In this document: one piece after another, positions 12,011 through 39,430 of the stretch
How the letters are laid out: the number at the start of each line of letters is the position of its first letter
How positions within the stretch are numbered: position 1 is the stretch's first letter
Source of the DNA: a phage
Sequence record: PX123008.1
Reading direction: 5' to 3' (one strand)
DNA length: 44,682 nucleotides
The notes under the pieces: model-generated
Seen by the model: the letters and a program-made list of their open reading frames with translations, nothing else
Database searches by the model: none
What the model was told of the DNA's origin: nothing
Made by a program: the position numbers and the translations under genes

Positions 12011-12327
12011 GCGGGACAGGCGGGACGTCCCGTTTTGTCCCGCACCTCTAAAACTGCATATTTACCCACTTACATTGCATAGATTAAAAGCGGGACAGGG
12101 GTGCTGTCCCGATCTGTCCCACCCCCGAAATGTGAATGTCTATTCAGTTTTCGTGCATAAAACAAACGGGACAGAAAGCGGGACAGAATGAGGCGGGACA
12201 AAGCGGGACAGCACCCCTGTCCCCGCCAGTGCTGCCGCGGGTTTTTAGCCGATCGGGACAGGCGGGACAAGCCCAGTCTTTCAGACTAGACGGGGGTCAT
12301 TGGCCCCCCTCGTCTGAGACTGAATAA
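12011..12327. repeat. iteron cluster A: ~8 direct and 4 inverted GCGGGACA copies plus a conserved ~60-bp terminal hairpin
   Basis: GGGACA at 12013, 12092, 12168, 12180, 12195, 12205, 12255, 12264; TGTCCC at 12036, 12105, 12115, 12218; terminal segment nearly identical to 39366..39430. Confidence 0.85.
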
Positions 12328-16456: not shown

Positions 16457-17252
16457 ATGTTAACGAAGAAGGTTAAAAGCGATATCGCCGCACACGTCGC
16501 GGCATGTCTGCCGGAAGAAGCCTGCGGCCTGGTTGTCATGGTGGGCCGCAAACAAGTTTTTATCCCGTGCGTTAACGTATTCGAAGACCCTACCGGTGCG
16601 CGCTCGCGTAAGGACGCGTTTACAATCAGTGATACGGCCTGGATGGATGCGGAGGAGCTCGCGTAAGGACGCGTTTACAATCAGTGATACGGCCTGGATG
16701 GATGCGGAGGATATGGGAGACGTCGTTCGCGTAGTCCACTCACACCCAGGTCAGCGCGAGTTAACCCCGTCATTGGGTGACGTCAACGGCTGCAACGGCA
16801 GCGGCGTCGTCTGGACCATCACTAACGAATATGGCGACTTCATCGAGATCGACCCGGAAGACCCGCCGCTGGTAGGCCGCCGATTTGTTCTCGGAATTAC
16901 GGATTGCTATGGCCTCGTAATGGACTGGCACAAAAAGCAGGGCGTGATTCTTCCGGACTTCCGCGTGCCGTACAACTGGTGGGAGGCAGGCGAAAACCTG
17001 TATATGGACAATTGGTATGGAGCTGGCTTCCGGGAGTGTGCGGAGAATACGCCTGGGGCGATGGTCATCATGCAGATTAGCGCGCCAGTGCCTAACCATG
17101 CCGGAATCTACCTTCCGGGCAACCAACTCCTACACCATATCTACGGCAGCTTGTCGAGCGTCGTCCCCTTCCGGGCAGGATTTTTCCGCGACAATGTGGT
17201 TAAATGGGTGCGTCACAAAGACTTACCGTGGGATATCACAGAATGGCAATGA
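16457..17252 (+). pseudogene. tail assembly protein gpK-like (MPN/JAMM + NlpC/P60) split by a 55-bp tandem duplication
   Basis: N-terminal ORF 16457..16666 (EACGL...PCVN) stops inside the repeat; the rest (VVHSHPG...TDCYG...) continues in a frame shifted by +1; removing one repeat copy restores one 247-codon ORF. Confidence 0.7.
16602..16711. repeat. perfect 55-bp tandem duplication (2 copies)
   Basis: 16602..16656 is identical to 16657..16711, read directly. Confidence 0.95.
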
Positions 17253-22539: not shown

Positions 22540-23925
22540 ATGGCGGCGGGAACATTATCCGTAACGAATAACAGCAAGGCAGTTGCAGGGGTTGACACGA
22601 CGTTCACCGCGTTTAAAGCTGGCGACTTCTTAACTCTGGTGGTGGGGCAAGTGCCTTACACCGTGGCAATCGCATCCATCGAAAGCGACACCGCGCTTAC
22701 GCTTGTGCTGCCGTTCGACGGACCCACGGCAACCGGCCTCGCGTGGGATGGCGTTAAGCGCGATACCATGTCACTGGCAACGATGGGCGTTACCGTACAG
22801 GCGCAGAAAGCACTGCGCTTGATGATTGCGGACGAAAACAACTGGCGTGCAATCTTCGGAGACGAAGAAGAAATCACGGTAACGCTGCCGAACGGGCAAG
22901 TTATGCAGGGTATGTCGTGGGGATACCTGTCGCAATTGCTGAAGGAAGTTGACCCCGTTGAAATGCGCAACCTGCAACAACAAGCCGCGGCATCTGAAGC
23001 AGCAGCGCAAGGATTTCGCGATCAGGCCAATGCTGCGAAGTTAGACGCACAAGCCGCGCGCGACGCGGCAAAGACCTCCGAGACTAACGCCGAGCAATGG
23101 GCGCAAAGCGTGAACGCCAACAACCTGCTAACAAAATCCGGCAACCTGCTAACAAAATCCGGCAACCTGGCGGGCATTACGGATTCGGCGGAGGCTCGTA
23201 ACAATCTTGGTCTGGGTCCTTTGTCTACAGCAAATGTGGTACCGGTAGAAAACGGTGGTACGGGAGTAACCAGGGCCGAGGATCTATGGCCTGTAGTTCG
23301 ACCTGTCGACGTGTTCGGAAACGTAGGTCACCTTATAGGTATTCCTAACGGTATTACACGAAATCATATCTGGCTGTGGAACACCGCAGATACACCACCT
23401 GCCGGTTGGGTTAACTACATGGAGGGGGGTTGGTTTAATGGTGTATGGCGTTTAGGTGGGGTTCGTGGCGGTAACGAGAACTTATCACATGCGCAGATTA
23501 CCGTTAATAGCGGTCAGGGTTCGGAAGCTCACTTCATGTTTTATCCTGATGGTTCCGCGCTCGCCGCAAACTGGGTGTCAACATCTGACCCACGTGTCAA
23601 GTCTCTGGTTGAGGTTATACCGGACCCTCTTGATTTGATGCGCAGTATCCGGGGTTATTCGTGGTACTACGAGCATACTGGTAGTAAGGGCTTCGGGTTC
23701 CTGTCTTCCGAGGTGAAGGTTAACTTCCGCGGGGCTGTTAAGACATTCGGTGATGCTGAGTTGCCCGATGGCACCGTAGTCCATGATGTAGAAGGTGTTG
23801 ATGTATCTGGTGTATCTGCCGCCCTCCACCATGAAGCCATTCTTGCTTTGATGGATAAAATGGAGGATATGCAGAAGGAACTGGAGGAGTTGAAAACTGC
23901 CGTAGCGGCCAAGACTAAAGCATAA
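22540..23925 (+). CDS. tail fibre protein
   Basis: ATG with GAGGA RBS 8 nt upstream (the track start at 22513 has no RBS); contains an in-frame NLLTKSG x2 repeat; 3' end duplicated. Confidence 0.65.
   Translation: MAAGTLSVTNNSKAVAGVDTTFTAFKAGDFLTLVVGQVPYTVAIASIESDTALTLVLPFDGPTATGLAWDGVKRDTMSLATMGVTVQAQKALRLMIADENNWRAIFGDEEEITVTLPNGQVMQGMSWGYLSQLLKEVDPVEMRNLQQQAAASEAAAQGFRDQANAAKLDAQAARDAAKTSETNAEQWAQSVNANNLLTKSGNLLTKSGNLAGITDSAEARNNLGLGPLSTANVVPVENGGTGVTRAEDLWPVVRPVDVFGNVGHLIGIPNGITRNHIWLWNTADTPPAGWVNYMEGGWFNGVWRLGGVRGGNENLSHAQITVNSGQGSEAHFMFYPDGSALAANWVSTSDPRVKSLVEVIPDPLDLMRSIRGYSWYYEHTGSKGFGFLSSEVKVNFRGAVKTFGDAELPDGTVVHDVEGVDVSGVSAALHHEAILALMDKMEDMQKELEELKTAVAAKTKA
23121..23162. repeat. 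21-bp in-frame tandem repeat inside the tail fibre gene
   Basis: caacctgctaacaaaatccgg twice, encoding NLLTKSG twice. Confidence 0.9.
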
Positions 23926-23981
23926 GGAGAAAGGGCCATACGGCCCAGACTAAAGCATAAGGAGAAAGGGCCATACGGCCC
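23912..23981. repeat. 35-bp tandem duplication covering the tail fibre stop codon and terminator hairpin
   Basis: agactaaagcataaggagaaagggccatacggccc twice; only the second copy is followed by T9. Confidence 0.9.
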
Positions 23982-29774: not shown

Positions 29775-30053
29775 CTATGCGACCAATTCAGCAACCAATA
29801 AATCGCAGTCGGCTATGTTGTCGATAACGCGAACGTCAGCACCGCGGCGGGCCATTCGCTCATGTTCACGTACCTGGTGCGGCTTCGGTTTTCCGCCTGG
29901 GCGCTTCACTTCGACGAACACTATTATGCCGTTGATGATAATAATCAGGTCGGGCGCACCTGCGCGCCCCTCCCATGCCAGTTTTCGGCAGAATCCGCCA
30001 ACCTCTTTAACCCGTTTCATAAGGTGACGCTGCACCTTGCCTTCTGGTGTCAT
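29775..30053 (-). CDS. VRR-NUC domain nuclease
   Basis: 92 aa, start overlaps the polymerase stop; PDLIII...VEVKRPGGK PD-(D/E)xK-like core. Confidence 0.6.
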   Translation of the reverse strand: MTPEGKVQRHLMKRVKEVGGFCRKLAWEGRAGAPDLIIIINGIIVFVEVKRPGGKPKPHQVREHERMARRGADVRVIDNIADCDLLVAELVA

Positions 30054-32344
30054 TATTTTCTGTACCTGTACATAATGTCGCCTTCGGCGGCAAGTGGGAA
30101 GCCTTTCGCCCAAATAGGCAGGTCGCACATCAGCGCGCAAAGCTCCTCTGTCGTGTAGTCGTCGGTGTCCGGCACTTCTGTGACCAATTCATCATGCACC
30201 GATAGAACGATTTCATAGCCCGCGGCTTCAACGCCAGGCATTGACCAGGCGAGAATATCACGGCATAACGCCTGTACGATGTTCTCCGTCAGTTTGCCGC
30301 CGTAGGTATACTGGAATCCCCACTGGCGCGTCGTCTGATTCTCGCCCTGGTATTTGATGCGGGTGCTGGTGCGCTTCTTGCCGGTGTCTTCGTCGATCTC
30401 TGTAGTGACAGACAGCGCGATGCCGGGGTAGCTCATGATGCGCCCCGACGGCAACTCAATTTTCAACCACCACCCCGCGGCGTTCGGGTCGTCGCGCTCC
30501 TCGTCAAAGGTTGGGTCGTGCTTCGCCTTCGTACGGACAATCTTGAGCGCTTTTCTGCCGTCCGGGCGAACGGTAGCGCCAGCCCAGTATGCTTTGCCCG
30601 GATTGCGTATTGCACACAACACCGCGTCCTCAAGCTCGGCCCAAAAGGCTACAGTCTTCGGGTGAGCCTCACGCCACATACGTTTGATCGCGTCACAGGT
30701 TAGCCACACGTTTTTAGGCAGTATGTATGTTGGGCGCTCGTCCTTCTTGCCTGGCTTCGGCGGGCGTTTCGCTTCGTTAATGCGGGCGTACTCATAGCCG
30801 CGTTTCGCCGCCGCCCAAATGTGATCCGGGAACGTGCCTTTCATCACGTCAGCCATAGTGTAAAGGTCGAGGCCCAGGTTTTTAGCGAACTGCAAGAACG
30901 CCGCGACGCCGCCACCATAGCCCAGTCCCAATTCGCACGCCTTACCGATCTGGCGTAAGTCCTTGCGGTTGGCTTTAATGTAGTCTGGGTCTAAGCCGAA
31001 CATCTTACCGGCAGTCTCGCAATAGATATCGCGCCCGGCCTTAAACACCATTAGCGCGGTTTTCTCGCCTGCTATCCAGGCAAGGCCGCGCCCCTCCACG
31101 TTGGAGTAGTCAGCTACAACAAACTTCTTACCCTTAGCCGGGATAATGCAGCTGCGTACGGTAGATGCTGTCAGCTTCGATATGTCGTACGCCCAGTGTG
31201 CGGTCCCGCGTAATAGGGAATTGATGCCGTTGGTGAGCATGTGCGACCGGACCCAAAACGACACGTCGCTTTCACCATCACGGCGCTTGATCTTGCCTTC
31301 GTGGTCGTCGCTGTACTCGCCACGCGCCAGGTTTTGAGGCTGAAAACCTTTACCGGCCCAACGCAGTGTACGCTTTGCCCCACCATACTGAATGCAACCA
31401 CGGCGGCGTCCATCGGCAGACAGGCCGTTGACGAGCGGATTGTACTTAGTCGATGCCGTTGATGACGCACCGAGACGCATCTCAATCAGCGCTTTGCCCT
31501 CGTCGGGGAAGTCCGGATCTTCCAGTAGGTCGTTTAGCGTGGATTTCTGCGCGTTGTGGATCGTGAACGCCGGGGCGATATCACGCAGGATTGGCAGGAA
31601 GTCATTGCCTGTCAGTTTACCGCCAAATCGCTCCCAGGCTTCCTCCTTCAATTCTTCCTTATGCGCCTGCACCGCTTTGATCGCGGCGTTCGCCAGGTCA
31701 ACGTCCACATAGAAGCCGCGGTCGTTGATCAACTGGTCGATAAGCAGGATTTCATCTTCCTTCGGAGTATTACCCCAGTCCGGTATGCGCCAGTAGACCT
31801 CACGCATCGCGATAATATCCAGCGCGGCATATCGCAGAAATTTGGCCCATTCTTCAGGGTGAGTCTCGCGCGTGTAGCGGCGTATTTTGTAGGTCTTAGG
31901 GGTAGGCTTACAGAATCGTTTGATCAGCGCCTTGCCTGCCTTATCCTTCGCGTGCTCTGCGTCAACGCCCAGCACCTGACACTGCATATCGAGGCTACCC
32001 GGCAGCGCGTGCCGAAAGGCCATAATCATGGTATCTTCGATCTGGCTTACCGGCAGGTCGATTCCCCACTTCTCACGGATAACCAGGCGGTCAAACAGGA
32101 GGCCGTTAGCCATCACGATTTTTGCTTTCTTGCGGGATACCTGACGGAGCGCCTTGCGCAGTTCACGCGGCATTGTTGGGGGTTCAGTGGCATCCCATGT
32201 CTGCACGCGGCCTTCGTCGATGGCGTAGGTGCAAATCATAATCTCGGTGGTTGGGTGCTCTGCGTAGGCGTACGCCCCTACTTTCTTCAGGTCCACCCCG
32301 CTAAATGTCTCGGTGTCGAGAAACAGACGTTCGAAGTCTTTCAT
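30053..32344 (-). CDS. DNA polymerase, family A, with 3'-5' exonuclease domain
   Basis: 763 aa, GAGGA RBS; exo motif FLDTETFSG; polymerase motif A ADYSNVEGRGLAWIAGE and motif C LSVHDELVTEV. Confidence 0.85.
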   Translation of the reverse strand: MKDFERLFLDTETFSGVDLKKVGAYAYAEHPTTEIMICTYAIDEGRVQTWDATEPPTMPRELRKALRQVSRKKAKIVMANGLLFDRLVIREKWGIDLPVSQIEDTMIMAFRHALPGSLDMQCQVLGVDAEHAKDKAGKALIKRFCKPTPKTYKIRRYTRETHPEEWAKFLRYAALDIIAMREVYWRIPDWGNTPKEDEILLIDQLINDRGFYVDVDLANAAIKAVQAHKEELKEEAWERFGGKLTGNDFLPILRDIAPAFTIHNAQKSTLNDLLEDPDFPDEGKALIEMRLGASSTASTKYNPLVNGLSADGRRRGCIQYGGAKRTLRWAGKGFQPQNLARGEYSDDHEGKIKRRDGESDVSFWVRSHMLTNGINSLLRGTAHWAYDISKLTASTVRSCIIPAKGKKFVVADYSNVEGRGLAWIAGEKTALMVFKAGRDIYCETAGKMFGLDPDYIKANRKDLRQIGKACELGLGYGGGVAAFLQFAKNLGLDLYTMADVMKGTFPDHIWAAAKRGYEYARINEAKRPPKPGKKDERPTYILPKNVWLTCDAIKRMWREAHPKTVAFWAELEDAVLCAIRNPGKAYWAGATVRPDGRKALKIVRTKAKHDPTFDEERDDPNAAGWWLKIELPSGRIMSYPGIALSVTTEIDEDTGKKRTSTRIKYQGENQTTRQWGFQYTYGGKLTENIVQALCRDILAWSMPGVEAAGYEIVLSVHDELVTEVPDTDDYTTEELCALMCDLPIWAKGFPLAAEGDIMYRYRK

Positions 32345-32511
32345 TGCTTTATCCTCACTACGGCGTCAGCGCTGCCGATCATGGAGAAGATGCCGTCTGA
32401 CAGGGCGATCTCTTCGCCGTTGTTGCGAATCTCGGCAACTGTGAAATATTCCCCCAGTAGCTTGGACCATACTTGCATTCCGACTTTTACTTCGCTGGCT
32501 TTAATACGCAT
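32341..32511 (-). CDS. small ORF (56 aa), doubtful
   Basis: ATG with AGGA upstream; stop overlaps the polymerase start codon; not in the supplied track. Confidence 0.3.
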   Translation of the reverse strand: MRIKASEVKVGMQVWSKLLGEYFTVAEIRNNGEEIALSDGIFSMIGSADAVVRIKQ

Positions 32512-32526
32512 TTTTCATTGTCCTAT

Positions 32527-32552
32527 TAAAAAGCCCGCATTAAGCGGGCTTG
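32527..32552 (-). terminator. rho-independent terminator after the SSB gene
   Basis: minus-strand AGCCCGC-ttaat-GCGGGCT followed by TTTTT. Confidence 0.55.
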
Positions 32553-32569
32553 AATAGTGGGCTTTGCCC

Positions 32570-33355
32570 TTAACGGCGGCGACGTTTACGTGGTGCTTCG
32601 TCTTCGTCGTCTTCGTCCTCATCTTCGTCATCGCGGGACTTGCGGCGTTTGCGAGGTTTTTCATCTTCCTCATCGTCGTCGTCATCGCGGCGCTTTGACT
32701 TTTTGGACTTACGCGGCTTGTCGTCTTCGTCATCGTCATCACGACGTTTTGACTTTTTGGACTTGCGCGGGCTTTCGTCTTCGTCATCGTTGTCCAGGTC
32801 TTCGTCGGAACATGAAGACCCGCCACCTCCGAAGGCTTCGCCGTCTTCACGGAAGCGTAAACCCAGCAAGCCAGCACCGAGTCCCTTGCCGTTGGTGTTG
32901 TTCCACGCCCAAATATCAAGGGACACGTTGCAATAACAACCGGAGTAGATCTCCTGGCCTTCAATCTCGTCGCCGTCGATGGTCAGACCTTGTTCAGTCT
33001 GCTTCTCGCCGAGTGACGTTTGAATGATAGGCTGTTTGAACGATTTGGCGTTGATATACAACATGCCTTCGAATTCTTCGGTCACTTCGTCGCGCTCGTC
33101 ACCGTCGCGGACTGCGCATTCCTTCGAATCCTGGGCGTAGTGGCGGTCCATCCACTTATCGGCATTCTTCTCGGATTTCAGCTTGTCGGTGAGCACTGCG
33201 CGTGCTGCCGCTTCCACTTTGTCCACCTGCGGATCTTCTTTATCCAGAAGAATCACGGCACGGTATGCCGGTTTTTGTCCATCCTGTTTAGGGGTGTCAC
33301 GTTCCCAGATTTTCAGGAAGCATACGCGCACATTTTTCAGGTTGACTTTAGCCAT
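32570..33355 (-). CDS. single-stranded DNA-binding protein (T7 gp2.5-like), with a repetitive charged C-terminal tail
   Basis: 261 aa from ATG 33355; N-terminal MAKVNLKNVRVCFLK recalls gp2.5-type SSBs; sits between the Cas4-like nuclease and the polymerase; tail of three ~20-aa K/R-D/E repeats ending APRKRRRR. Confidence 0.5.
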   Translation of the reverse strand: MAKVNLKNVRVCFLKIWERDTPKQDGQKPAYRAVILLDKEDPQVDKVEAAARAVLTDKLKSEKNADKWMDRHYAQDSKECAVRDGDERDEVTEEFEGMLYINAKSFKQPIIQTSLGEKQTEQGLTIDGDEIEGQEIYSGCYCNVSLDIWAWNNTNGKGLGAGLLGLRFREDGEAFGGGGSSCSDEDLDNDDEDESPRKSKKSKRRDDDDEDDKPRKSKKSKRRDDDDDEEDEKPRKRRKSRDDEDEDEDDEDEAPRKRRRR

Positions 33356-33420
33356 TTTCCAATTCCTCATTTTCACATGTATCGGGGTTATTGGAAGCCA
33401 CCCCGTTCGGCTTGGTTGCC

Positions 33421-33449
33421 AATTTACTTGGTTGCGCCTGAGCGGTCAA
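33421..33449 (-). promoter_or_regulatory. sigma70-like promoter (TTGACC-N17-TAAATT) for the SSB gene, flanked by GCAACCAAG copies
   Basis: hexamers read directly; motif copies at 33412..33420 and 33428..33436. Confidence 0.45.
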
Positions 33450-33688
33450 GCATTTTCATTAAAAAGATTTCTGGTCACGTAGTTGGTAGCGTTCTCGATC
33501 CAGCTTAATGGCGGGCGGTCGCCATGTCTCGCGATCCACGCCACGGCAATGGTGCTGTAACCATCGTCCAGCCATTGGGTTGGATGGCGAATCATCCAGG
33601 CCACCATTAACACGCCTTGCACACAATGCAGGATAAAGCCCAGCGCGCCGAGCAAAAACATCAATAAGATCGCAAATACTTTATTCAT
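33446..33688 (-). CDS. small membrane protein
   Basis: 80 aa, GAGGA RBS; two hydrophobic segments. Confidence 0.45.
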   Translation of the reverse strand: MNKVFAILLMFLLGALGFILHCVQGVLMVAWMIRHPTQWLDDGYSTIAVAWIARHGDRPPLSWIENATNYVTRNLFNENA

Positions 33689-35111
33689 TGCTTAAGTCCT
33701 CGTCAGTAGCTACAGACCACGCAGGGCGCGGGTCGTCGATGGGTGCTAATACCGGTTTAGCGGGTGCGCGCGTGATTTTATCACATAGCTTCGCCCATAC
33801 TTTCGGTTTCTCGTCCTTCAGTACCTTCTCGGCATCCGTAGGACTGAGTAATGTTTCTTTGTACATCACATCACGCTTGATCCGGGCCTTCGTGAAGATT
33901 TCAATCACTTCGCTCTCGTCCGCCCACTTACGGATTCCTTCCTTACCGGCAACCATCTTGAGGCCCAGCGATTCGCCATCGCCCGCCATTACGGCCTTGA
34001 ATACTGCGGACTCGATAGCCTTGATGTGCTGGCGCATTGCGTCTAGACCTTCATATGCCTTGCGCAGTTCCGCGGCGGTCATAGCGCCGGGGGCCGCTTC
34101 TTTCTTACCACGCTTCTCACGTCGTGCCGCTTTGCGGGCTTCGCGGGCCATATTGCGGTCGTGATTGGCGCATTCTTCCTCTGTCGCAATACTCACGTCG
34201 TCGCCCAGGTCTTCGTCTGTTGCCGTTGGTTGGGTCATCGTGTCGATTGCAGCCTTAGCGCGGGCGCTACACTGATCCGCAAATCGGCACCACTGACACG
34301 CATCAACGCTCGGACGGAAGTCGGCGCGGGTGAGTCCCTTTTTGCCTCGGGCGTACGCTTCCAGGGCGGCGATAGCACGCTTGGACGCAAACTTAGCGAA
34401 TATCTCCAGGGCTTCTACCGAAATATCCCACTCCGACGCCCCGCCGCAATACGGCTGGAAGATAACCAGGCGCACGGTAGTAATGTCGTACATAGTTTTC
34501 AGCTTGCGCAGCAGGCCGAGCGCGTACAACATAAGCTGTTTGTTTTCTTTCGCCTCGACCTTATGCCGTCCCGTCTTCAGGTCGCCAACAATCAGCATGT
34601 ACGTGCCGTCGGTCTTCTTCATGACCATGACCATATCGGCAGTGCCGAACGTCTTAACCCTGTTGCCGTCGATCTCGAAGCCAGAGTGTAGGACACGGGT
34701 TAGATCGGCGCGCATCTCAAGCTGGACAAACTCCGCAACTTCGAGGAGCGGTCGCCAGTGGTCGATGTACGCGTCGCACTGTTTCACCATATCGTCGTTG
34801 ACCAGTATGCCGCCTTTCGGTGCTTTCGGGTGCGACTTTACCGGCCCCTTACCTTCGTTCTCGACGTAGCACCCTTTGTAAGTCTTCGCGGTTATCAGCT
34901 TCCCCCCGGCGATAATGCGGTTGAGCACGACTTCCGATACGGTGTGCATACTCGTACCGTTAATTGCCGCTTGCCCGGATTCGTTCGGGATCCCTTGTTC
35001 TACCACCAGGGCGGCGGGGCAACCCATCCATTTTTTAGCACCGGATGGGCCGAGTAATGAGTGTTCCGTGTTGCTACCGGATTGCGTTTTACGTTTTGGT
35101 TTAATCGCCAT
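33681..35111 (-). CDS. Cas4-like PD-(D/E)xK exonuclease with C-terminal Cys cluster
   Basis: 476 aa; cysteine cluster YCGG...CQWCRFADQC; charged lysine-rich C-terminal region; commonly next to gp2.5-like SSB and PolA in phage replication modules (memory). Confidence 0.6.
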   Translation of the reverse strand: MAIKPKRKTQSGSNTEHSLLGPSGAKKWMGCPAALVVEQGIPNESGQAAINGTSMHTVSEVVLNRIIAGGKLITAKTYKGCYVENEGKGPVKSHPKAPKGGILVNDDMVKQCDAYIDHWRPLLEVAEFVQLEMRADLTRVLHSGFEIDGNRVKTFGTADMVMVMKKTDGTYMLIVGDLKTGRHKVEAKENKQLMLYALGLLRKLKTMYDITTVRLVIFQPYCGGASEWDISVEALEIFAKFASKRAIAALEAYARGKKGLTRADFRPSVDACQWCRFADQCSARAKAAIDTMTQPTATDEDLGDDVSIATEEECANHDRNMAREARKAARREKRGKKEAAPGAMTAAELRKAYEGLDAMRQHIKAIESAVFKAVMAGDGESLGLKMVAGKEGIRKWADESEVIEIFTKARIKRDVMYKETLLSPTDAEKVLKDEKPKVWAKLCDKITRAPAKPVLAPIDDPRPAWSVATDEDLSNE

Positions 35112-39250: not shown

Positions 39251-39430
39251 TAAAACTGCATAAACTAAGCGGGACAGAAAGCGGGACAAACAAGGGGCGG
39301 GACAAAGCGGGACAGCACCCCCTGTCCCGCCCGGATGGCGCGGCCTGGAGAGGAGCGGGACAAGCGGGACAAAGCCCAGTCTTTCAGACTAGACGGGGGT
39401 CAACGGCCCCCCTCGTCTGAGACTGAATAA
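39251..39430. repeat. iteron cluster B: 6 direct and 1 inverted GCGGGACA copies plus the conserved ~60-bp terminal hairpin
   Basis: GGGACA at 39271, 39283, 39299, 39309, 39357, 39366; TGTCCC at 39323; 39366..39430 nearly identical to 12264..12327. Confidence 0.85.

Follow-up and report, generated by a model that had tools for sequence, protein, structure and literature searches.

The window analysed here is a stretch of 44,682 nucleotides (nt) of phage DNA (sequence record PX123008.1), which derives from a Dhillonvirus, an HK578-like siphophage of Escherichia coli. Its minus strand contains a gene that encodes a T7 gp2.5-like SSB, or single-stranded DNA-binding protein, of the Enc34/DUF2815 type, a class of proteins for the binding and annealing of single-stranded DNA (ssDNA). 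The protein consists of an OB-fold core and a long C-terminal tail, formed by the last 85 residues (177–261), in which basic and acidic blocks alternate and which terminates in a run of arginines. Both the proximal acidic motif and the Arg-rich tip of this tail are fixed in Dhillonvirus, while the number of repeat units between them varies.

The SSB and its charged tail

The SSB matches Pfam family PF10991 (Enc34_ssDNA-bd, DUF2815) with a score of 109.6 bits, where the cut-off is 26 (E 1.8e-31), covering profile positions 2–173 of 176 and residues 10–200 of the listed open reading frame (ORF). This is the sole Pfam match at E ≤ 0.01; the bacterial SSB family PF00436 is not matched. The protein also belongs to PHROG 112 ('Gp2.5-like ssDNA binding protein and ssDNA annealing protein', E 1.2e-53), and a phmmer search against PDB sequences retrieves 4jg2, 4klk and Enc34 ORF6 (5odj/5odk/5odl). 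In an AlphaFold2 (AF2) model built on 53 homologues, residues 1–170 have a predicted local distance difference test (pLDDT) score above 90, and strands 2–20 and 30–38 are followed by a long capping helix (residues 43–59). An OB barrel with a long capping helix directly after strand β2 is the hallmark of T7-type SSBs (PMC5686142), and this layout is present in the model. A Foldseek search with the model identifies 4klk (E 3e-12), 5odl_A (E 4e-12, TMt 0.77) and T7 gp2.5 (1je5, E 6e-7) as structural homologs; the matches to bacterial SSBs are non-significant (E >0.1). T7-type SSBs carry an aromatic stacking residue at the start of strand β4 (W150 in Enc34, Y136 in the Bacillus cereus protein and Y158 in T7), with a polar residue four positions later (PMC5686142). 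Residues Y141 and S145 in the YSGCYCNVS segment of the window SSB align with YSGCYARVS of 4jg2, and the pattern YSGCY..VS is also kept with respect to 4klk; the YSGCY motif is predicted to provide the ssDNA-stacking aromatic residue. Preferential binding of ssDNA by the window SSB is putative, with the activation of the defence system Retron-Eco8 by the orthologue of phage SECphi4 as a pointer: when expressed, the SECphi4 SSB triggers Retron-Eco8 as T7 gp2.5 does (bioRxiv 10.1101/2022.08.27.505566).

The tail has the sequence GGGSSCSDEDLDNDDEDE / SPRKSKKSKRRDDDDEDD / KPRKSKKSKRRDDDDDEEDE / KPRKRRKSRDDEDEDEDDEDE / APRKRRRR-stop. A Gly linker with an acidic motif is followed by three repeat units of 18–21 residues, each consisting of an x-P-R-K basic run and an acidic run, and by the terminal tip (Table 1). 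The residue before the proline varies (S, K, A, R, Q or E across units and homologues), and the Arg codons of the tip are all common CGT or CGC codons. At the DNA level, Tandem Repeats Finder reports a repeat with a period of 54 nt at 32666..32790 (2.3 copies, 86% matches, score 185). A repeat search in addition reveals a four-copy family at the acid-to-PRK junctions, spaced by 63, 60 and 54 nt, and a 54-nt pair of 81% identity. Units 1 and 2 share nine identical codons and differ in 9 of 18, with five synonymous and four non-synonymous differences. A preliminary description of this DNA had taken the protein to be SSB-like, an assignment that is borne out by PF10991, PHROG 112 and the matches to Enc34 ORF6, 4klk, 4jg2 and 1je5. 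The same description had noted a tail of ~85 residues, with about three repeats of ~20 residues and an APRKRRRR end, and the sequence indeed reads that way. It had also attributed these to DNA tandem repeats of ~60 bp; the repeats exist, but their period is not uniform (54, 60 and 63 nt).

Table 1. Features of the SSB gene and its surroundings (positions in the window)
Feature	Residues	Coordinates	Strand	Remarks
SSB gene	1–261	32570..33355	minus	261 residues plus stop, from likely ATG at 33355
OB-fold core	1–176	32828..33355	minus	Enc34/DUF2815-type; capping helix H43–59; YSGCY motif Y137–Y141
Gly linker and proximal acidic motif, GGGSSCSDEDLDNDDEDE	177–194	32774..32827	minus	kept in every Dhillonvirus tail, the minimal one included
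Repeat unit 1, SPRKSKKSKRR DDDDEDD	195–212	32720..32773	minus	54 nt
Repeat unit 2, KPRKSKKSKRR DDDDDEEDE	213–232	32660..32719	minus	60 nt
Repeat unit 3, KPRKRRKSR DDEDEDEDDEDE	233–253	32597..32659	minus	63 nt
Terminal Arg-rich tip, APRKRRRR	254–261	32573..32596	minus	fourth unit truncated to its basic half
Promoter-like site, TTGACC-17-TAAATT		33421..33449	minus	upstream of SSB gene; consensus match only
Intrinsic-terminator hairpin, GCCCGC-TTAAT-GCGGGC then TTTTT		32529..32552	minus	read directly from the sequence
Serine-rich antisense ORF	98 residues	32640..32936	plus	TTG start; judged not a gene

Blocks of opposite charge alternate in the tail, with 37 acidic and 28 basic residues in total; 79% of the tail is charged, and its net charge is about -9 (-0.11 per residue). 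The sign of the charge switches only 7 times along the tail, compared with 31.8 ± 4.0 times in 5000 composition-preserving shuffles, and the kappa-like charge segregation (~0.58, z = 10.4) is reached by none of these shuffles (0/5000). Since the segregation lies 10.4 standard deviations above the shuffled sequences, the charge pattern is non-random. The AF2 model predicts the tail to be disordered, with a pLDDT of ~50 from residue 178 onwards and a single short helix (184–187, DEDL). In the 53-sequence alignment D186 and D190 are at least 90% conserved. The features of a canonical SSB tail, i.e., a short and purely acidic tail with F, L, I, W or Y within the last two residues, are both absent from the window SSB, which ends in ...APRKRRRR. 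Two known types of basic motif were considered for the basic blocks and rejected: the RGRP sequence of an AT-hook is absent, and an SPKK-like sequence (SPRK) occurs in unit 1 only and is not conserved. The tail alone (32570..32800) gives a weak match to the C-terminal part of phrog_15004, another SSB-annotated PHROG (profile positions 301–392 of 421, E 1.3e-4), which may reflect a similar charged tail in an unrelated phage SSB family or may be purely compositional.

Variation and distribution of the tail

Approximately 150 GenBank phages match the SSB region at 88–96% nucleotide identity. The comparison drew on SSB genes from 16 loci in IMG/VR, on three GenBank records and on the supplementary table for SECphi4 and SECphi18. 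All complete Dhillonvirus SSB genes recovered are in frame and end in APRKRRRR, and every version also retains the proximal motif SDEDL..DDEDE. The intervening part is variable. Four basic blocks are present in the window SSB, in that of the independent viral contig L001 and in most others (256–265 residues, with phage Kente slightly longer), three in HK578, EK99P-1, Sloth and SECphi4 (236–247 residues), two in EP23 and P-GXEC-L2P5 (224 residues) and one in phage welsh (202 residues). The welsh tail, ...SSCSDEDLDNDDEDE-APRKRRRR, contains no internal unit at all, and consists of the proximal acidic motif and the Arg tip. The breakpoints vary among the phages: SECphi4 joins KPRK to RRRR, and the locus L002 joins two basic blocks. 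These different breakpoints indicate that in-frame recombination between the DNA repeats has occurred recurrently and independently. Among 56 evenly spaced Dhillonvirus records, ~46 are within 15 nt of the window length (~82% with the four-block form), eight are shorter by one unit, and a single record each by two and by three units. Thus, the four-block form predominates in Dhillonvirus.

The propensity for repeat-number variation that the preliminary description had ascribed to the tail is therefore real, with one, two, three or four basic blocks in different Dhillonvirus genomes. The same description had allowed that the array might be an expansion introduced by assembly, which is not what was found: the SSB of L001 is also 261 residues long, the 90% cluster P0001 (261 residues) has 537 member sequences, and several GenBank phages match the region at 601/601 nt. 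One locus, L014 (IMGVR_UViG_3300045988_003101), has an SSB tail that is cut at the contig end and continues as AVSYTHLRAHE, which presumably represents translated Nextera adapter sequence.

To place the tail within its family, 1.84 billion representative proteins were searched with the OB core only, so that the search was unbiased by the tail. This yielded 1760 relatives, the best 148 of which having a tail were used for the statistics. The median tail length among these representatives is 26 residues. The large majority (134/148) have no basic block, and 14/148 contain one or more. A hydrophobic tip after acidic residues (...DDDIPF, ...DDLPF or ...DDDLI) is found in 127/148, and a basic end in 6/148. 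The tail of the window SSB is thus a minority variant of the PF10991 family, yet it is the norm in its own clade; its earlier characterization as unusual holds at the family level, but not within the clade, where an alternating tail is the rule. Six relatives (P0117, P0221, P0233, P0239, P0213 and P0261) end in DDDIPF, DDIPF or DDDLPF, a tip as in E. coli SSB. This resemblance suggests that some phage SSBs of the PF10991 family may mimic the host SSB tip and thereby recruit host SSB-interacting proteins.

A second set, comprising 114 usable homologue tails, came from a search whose query contained the tail, and tails of this kind are over-represented in it; nearly all of its members share the alternating design, with 1–9 basic blocks, most often three. 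In these tails the acid-to-base junction carries a proline in 297/333 blocks (89%), a unit typically contains ~6 basic followed by ~8 acidic charges, and the net charge is negative in 112/114 cases (median -8.5). The alternating architecture persists down to about 45% identity of the OB core. Within the enterobacterial clade, the terminal basic block consists for 75% of Arg, whereas the internal blocks are more mixed (39% Arg, 25% Lys and 18% Ser). In 75/105 tails, this terminal block is located at the C-terminus or at most one residue from it, while the other tails append a few acidic residues (...RRRRNRDED, ...RRNYEDDEE). According to tblastn searches, the clade with the alternating tail comprises roughly 650–700 GenBank phages, including ~40-kb Salmonella siphophages (possibly Jersey-like), Dhillonvirus, Kagunavirus, Enterobacter phage phiEap-2, Klebsiella phage 37P2 and Serratia phage Tsm2.

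Alternating tails are also present outside the enterobacterial clade, where they are built from different units, for example DDDEDERPKRRSR (six copies), RSSRRSRRSRDDEDED (five copies) and DDDDRGSRSRSR. Each of these lineages has its own DNA tandem repeat, with a period of 42, 57 or 60 nt, and the tails usually still end with hydrophobic residues (DDDDDIPF, DDDDF or DDDLPF). The nearest OB-core neighbours of these repeat-tail proteins have short canonical tails, and the gene neighbourhood is alike for both types of tail (Prim-Pol primase-helicase, DUF2800 protein, SSB, polymerase and SNF2 helicase). Fitch parsimony on a rough, unbootstrapped neighbour-joining tree gives 14 changes from a root without basic blocks, a rough count that was in part produced by the threshold set for the number of blocks within the enterobacterial clade. 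Outside this clade, similar repeat tails seem to have originated several times. A charge-alternating repeat would have entered between OB fold and tip on repeated occasions, and the enterobacterial clade would additionally have lost the hydrophobic tip.

The tail was further compared with those of characterized proteins. Enc34 ORF6 (5odj, 5odk and 5odl; Cernooka et al. 2017, PMC5686142), from an Enterobacter/Hafnia phage, shares with the window SSB the Pfam family, the fold and the aromatic YSGCY region, as well as a location in a replication module with polymerase A and a disordered C-terminal segment with acidic residues. However, the sequence identity is ~21%, and the tail of Enc34 ORF6 is short, with D or E at 16 of the last 29 positions, no basic block and the end ...WDEDEDEV, as opposed to 85 residues with four basic blocks and Arg4 in the window SSB. 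T7 gp2.5 (1je5) has the same T7-type OB fold with a long capping helix, and both proteins trigger Retron-Eco8, the window protein via its SECphi4 orthologue. It also possesses an acidic tail region, which in T7 competes with ssDNA and binds the polymerase and the helicase. In gp2.5, which is ~12–14% identical to the window SSB, a long acidic run is followed by an essential C-terminal Phe; tandem units and an Arg tip are absent, and the final acidic run is preceded by one small KASKPR patch. The SECphi4 and SECphi18 SSBs are orthologues whose OB cores hardly differ from that of the window SSB and whose tails share the design and the tip, although the SECphi4 protein has three basic blocks instead of four. 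The paper on these phages omits the 'flexible C-terminal residues' from its figure and reports no tail mutation (bioRxiv 10.1101/2022.08.27.505566).

E. coli SSB follows the same logic: its OB fold is joined by a disordered, low-complexity linker, the length of which varies, to a short motif for docking at the C-terminus. However, it belongs to a different OB family, its linker is Gly/Gln/Pro-rich and uncharged, and its tip (DDDIPF) is acidic and hydrophobic. Alternating D/E and K/R tracts are known from disordered regions of eukaryotic nucleic-acid chaperones, such as the A/B tracts of NPM1 and the acidic tail of HMGB1, where they auto-inhibit DNA binding and drive self-association. These proteins are from a different kingdom and domain context and share no homology with the phage SSBs, such that the likeness is one of analogy only.

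Gene boundaries, neighbouring genes and other repeats

In the ORF listing, the gene is enclosed by a longer ORF (32570..33376, minus) that is opened by an upstream GTG at 33376. The annotated start codons of the relatives differ: RefSeq PaulFeyerabend starts at the ATG that corresponds to 33370, five codons earlier (266 residues), and SECphi4 and welsh start at the equivalent of ATG 33355. Only ATG 33355 among these three candidates is preceded by a Shine-Dalgarno sequence (GAGGAA, 7 nt upstream), for which reason it is the likely start of the gene; the protein then begins with MAKVNLKNV. At the other end, 18 nt past the stop codon, a GC-rich hairpin followed by a T-run closes the SSB transcription unit, outside the tail. 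This hairpin is invariant in alignment A2 and is labelled 'terminator' in the records of three relatives (H61, H68 and H105). It was not listed by a consensus terminator scan of the window, because an A-T extension of the stem consumes the T-run.

The SSB gene is located in a replication and recombination module. Upstream are an ORF of 80 residues and a gene for a DUF2800 PD-(D/E)XK nuclease (33681..35111), and downstream an ORF of 56 residues followed by DNA polymerase A (30053..32344). The gene order DUF2800 – 80-residue ORF – SSB – 56-residue ORF – PolA is found again in distant relatives, and like neighbours occur at loci L021–L023. The 56-residue ORF between the SSB and polymerase genes (32341..32511, minus) belongs to phrog_10102, to which PHROGs assigns no function, and its sequence is the same as that of the 'SECphi4 56aa protein of unknown function'. 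A defence-escape mutant has an E21 frameshift in this SECphi4 protein, which was also cloned to be tested as a trigger (Stokar-Avihail et al. Table S2, bioRxiv 10.1101/2022.08.27.505566).

Two further ORFs overlap the tail-coding DNA, the antisense ORF of Table 1 and an alternative-frame ORF on the minus strand (32515..32964). Neither has a PHROG match. The antisense frame is open because the reverse of the GAN-rich acidic codons (GTC/TTC/ATC, read as TCN) cannot give stop codons. Both ORFs were rejected as genes on account of the absent family match and their composition-driven origin, in line with the earlier opinion that the antisense ORF is probably spurious. Two database entries display an M/T/K-rich 'tail' that results from a shift of the reading frame, i.e., P0005 (phage vB_EcoS-22664B1, MZ234008; L025), with an insertion of 2 nt, and P0008 (ERR1097471; L026), with a deletion of 1 nt. 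Since the normal-frame tail DNA and the stop codon are intact downstream of both indels, these are probably sequencing errors.

Elsewhere in the window, the motif GCGGGACAGA (at most one mismatch, both strands) occurs in two clusters, with eight copies at 12011..12212 and six at 39269..39373; the total of 15 matches in the window compares with 3.3 ± 2.0 expected by chance. The clusters resemble iterons or operator arrays and could be sites for a regulator or an origin. A perfect 55-nt tandem duplication (2.0 copies, 100%) is present at 16602..16711, inside the plus-strand ORF 16533..17252. The length of this array, 110 nt, is not a multiple of three, and it could represent a recent duplication, a frameshifting event or an assembly artefact. 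Near-perfect tandem repeats are furthermore found at 23121..23169 (21 nt, 2.3 copies, 100%) and 23906..23981 (35 nt, 2.2 copies, 97%).

Possible role of the tail

By analogy with T7 gp2.5 and Enc34 ORF6, and as a general reading of the mechanism, the tail is reasonably likely to be this lineage's version of the regulatory and partner-docking tail of SSBs. The tail is a net-negative, blocky polyampholyte, predicted to be intrinsically disordered, with two fixed elements, the acidic DEDL motif beside the OB fold and an Arg-rich tip, xPR(K/R)RRR, that stands where canonical family members have a hydrophobic tip. Between these elements, zero to three tandem units, each with a basic run (~6 charges) and an acidic run (~8 charges), expand and contract through in-frame recombination between the DNA repeats of 54–63 nt. 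As proposed from the behaviour of T7 gp2.5 and Enc34 ORF6, the acidic blocks may act as ssDNA mimics in the basic groove of the OB fold, providing auto-inhibition and specificity for ssDNA, and may contact basic surfaces of replisome partners. Deletion of the C-terminus confers double-stranded DNA binding on Enc34 ORF6 (PMC5686142), and the acidic tail of that protein therefore enforces its ssDNA specificity. The Arg tip could serve in docking, as a short motif that binds either nucleic acid or an acidic site of some phage replisome protein, while the internal units could form a multivalent electrostatic spacer that tunes cooperativity, annealing or self-association.

Several observations weigh against this proposal. 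Literature searches returned no paper that describes or tests this type of acidic/basic SSB tail. SECphi4 and SECphi18 mutants that escape Retron-Eco8 have either the mutation T56P in the OB core or a promoter change, one of the SECphi4 mutations being situated in the intergenic region upstream of the SSB gene (bioRxiv 10.1101/2022.08.27.505566). As the escape mutations are outside the tail, the Retron-Eco8 data are silent on it, and the notion of defence-escape mutations in the tail was rejected. Other papers on Retron-Eco8, DARNA and Sir2-HerA deal with the T7 tail only or leave the Dhillonvirus tail unmentioned. The AF2 model contains no docked or folded conformation of the tail and offers no structural lead on its partners. 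The codon comparison of units 1 and 2 gives a positive but weak sign that purifying selection maintains the amino-acid sequence, and the set of 114 tails is enriched in the design by the way in which it was retrieved. Finally, the viability of phage welsh implies that the internal units are dispensable for plaque formation, and they may contribute little.

An alternative view is that the internal repeats are neutral low-complexity expansions, generated by slippage or unequal recombination in GAN/AAR/CGN-rich DNA and tolerated by the disordered linker without a function of their own, which would leave a role only to the proximal acidic motif and perhaps to the tip. The range of zero to three internal units in plaque-forming phages is consistent with it, as are the short insertions and deletions of codons that are common in the acidic runs (offsets of ±3 to 15 nt) and the codon differences between units 1 and 2, which are not strongly biased towards synonymous changes. 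On the other hand, the architecture is kept down to ~45% OB-core identity, with Pro at 89% of the junctions and a net negative charge in 112/114 tails, and the preservation of block lengths and junction residues is not expected of neutral repeat drift. Moreover, the charge design reappears in separate lineages from different repeat units, and ~82% of the sampled Dhillonvirus records retain the four-block form, all of which makes neutrality unlikely. Still less likely is that the tail serves mainly as a self-coacervating polyampholyte, akin to the A/B tracts of NPM1, condensing SSB with SSB and SSB with DNA into replication foci, with the number of units setting the phase boundary. Blocky polyampholytes and the linker of E. 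coli SSB do phase-separate, and the composition of the tail (79% charged, kappa ~0.58, z = 10.4), its multivalent tandem structure, variable unit number and predicted disorder would suit such a function. However, welsh is viable with a single acidic-plus-basic pair, and the negative net charge together with the invariable motif at the end suggests docking or auto-inhibition instead.

The repeats might also act at the level of the DNA, as replication-origin iterons or a regulatory array inside the gene. The lambda origin is situated inside gene O, and the window has four copies of a 44-nt motif at intervals of 54–63 nt within a replication gene. These copies are just 61–75% identical to the reference copy, though, and natural deletions largely refute this role, as welsh lacks all internal copies and EP23 two of them, with different breakpoints. 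In the other lineages the DNA units are unrelated and only the encoded charge pattern is common, and the GCGGGACAGA clusters are better iteron-like candidates; an origin or array within the tail-coding DNA is accordingly highly improbable. The chance that the ORF does not encode an SSB, or that the array is an assembly expansion, is practically negligible: the usual risk of repeats in assemblies is all that speaks for it, while the family and fold matches are strong and independent genomes have the array with equal length and sequence. The reading as a regulatory and docking tail can also be carried further, to a distinct and recurrently evolved SSB tail code, in which the Arg motif would replace the acidic/hydrophobic tip as the replisome docking signal, the units would drive cooperative self-assembly or condensation on ssDNA, and the number of units would set the efficiency of replication or annealing. 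We regard this extension as doubtful.

The C-terminal tails of SSBs form a hub that recruits replication and repair proteins, and the textbook rule is that of an acidic tail with a hydrophobic last residue. This rule is broken in a clade of roughly 650–700 sequenced siphophages of Salmonella, Escherichia, Klebsiella, Enterobacter and Serratia, the SSBs of which have a blocky polyampholyte tail that ends in, or a few residues past, an Arg-rich block. Neither the protein nor its family is new, and experiments already make use of orthologues, but the tail itself is undescribed in the literature found. For annotation, the tail region is a genuine coding repeat, and the antisense and alternative-frame ORFs and the frameshifted entries are artefacts. 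Many phages of the clade serve phage therapy and research on defence systems, e.g., SECphi4 and the BASEL Dhillonviruses, and the tail is relevant to defences that sense phage SSBs (Retron-Eco8, Sir2-HerA type III, Hachiman and AbpAB), in the study of which it has so far been ignored. The natural deletion series of one to four basic blocks, in otherwise near-identical phages, makes the role of the tail directly testable.

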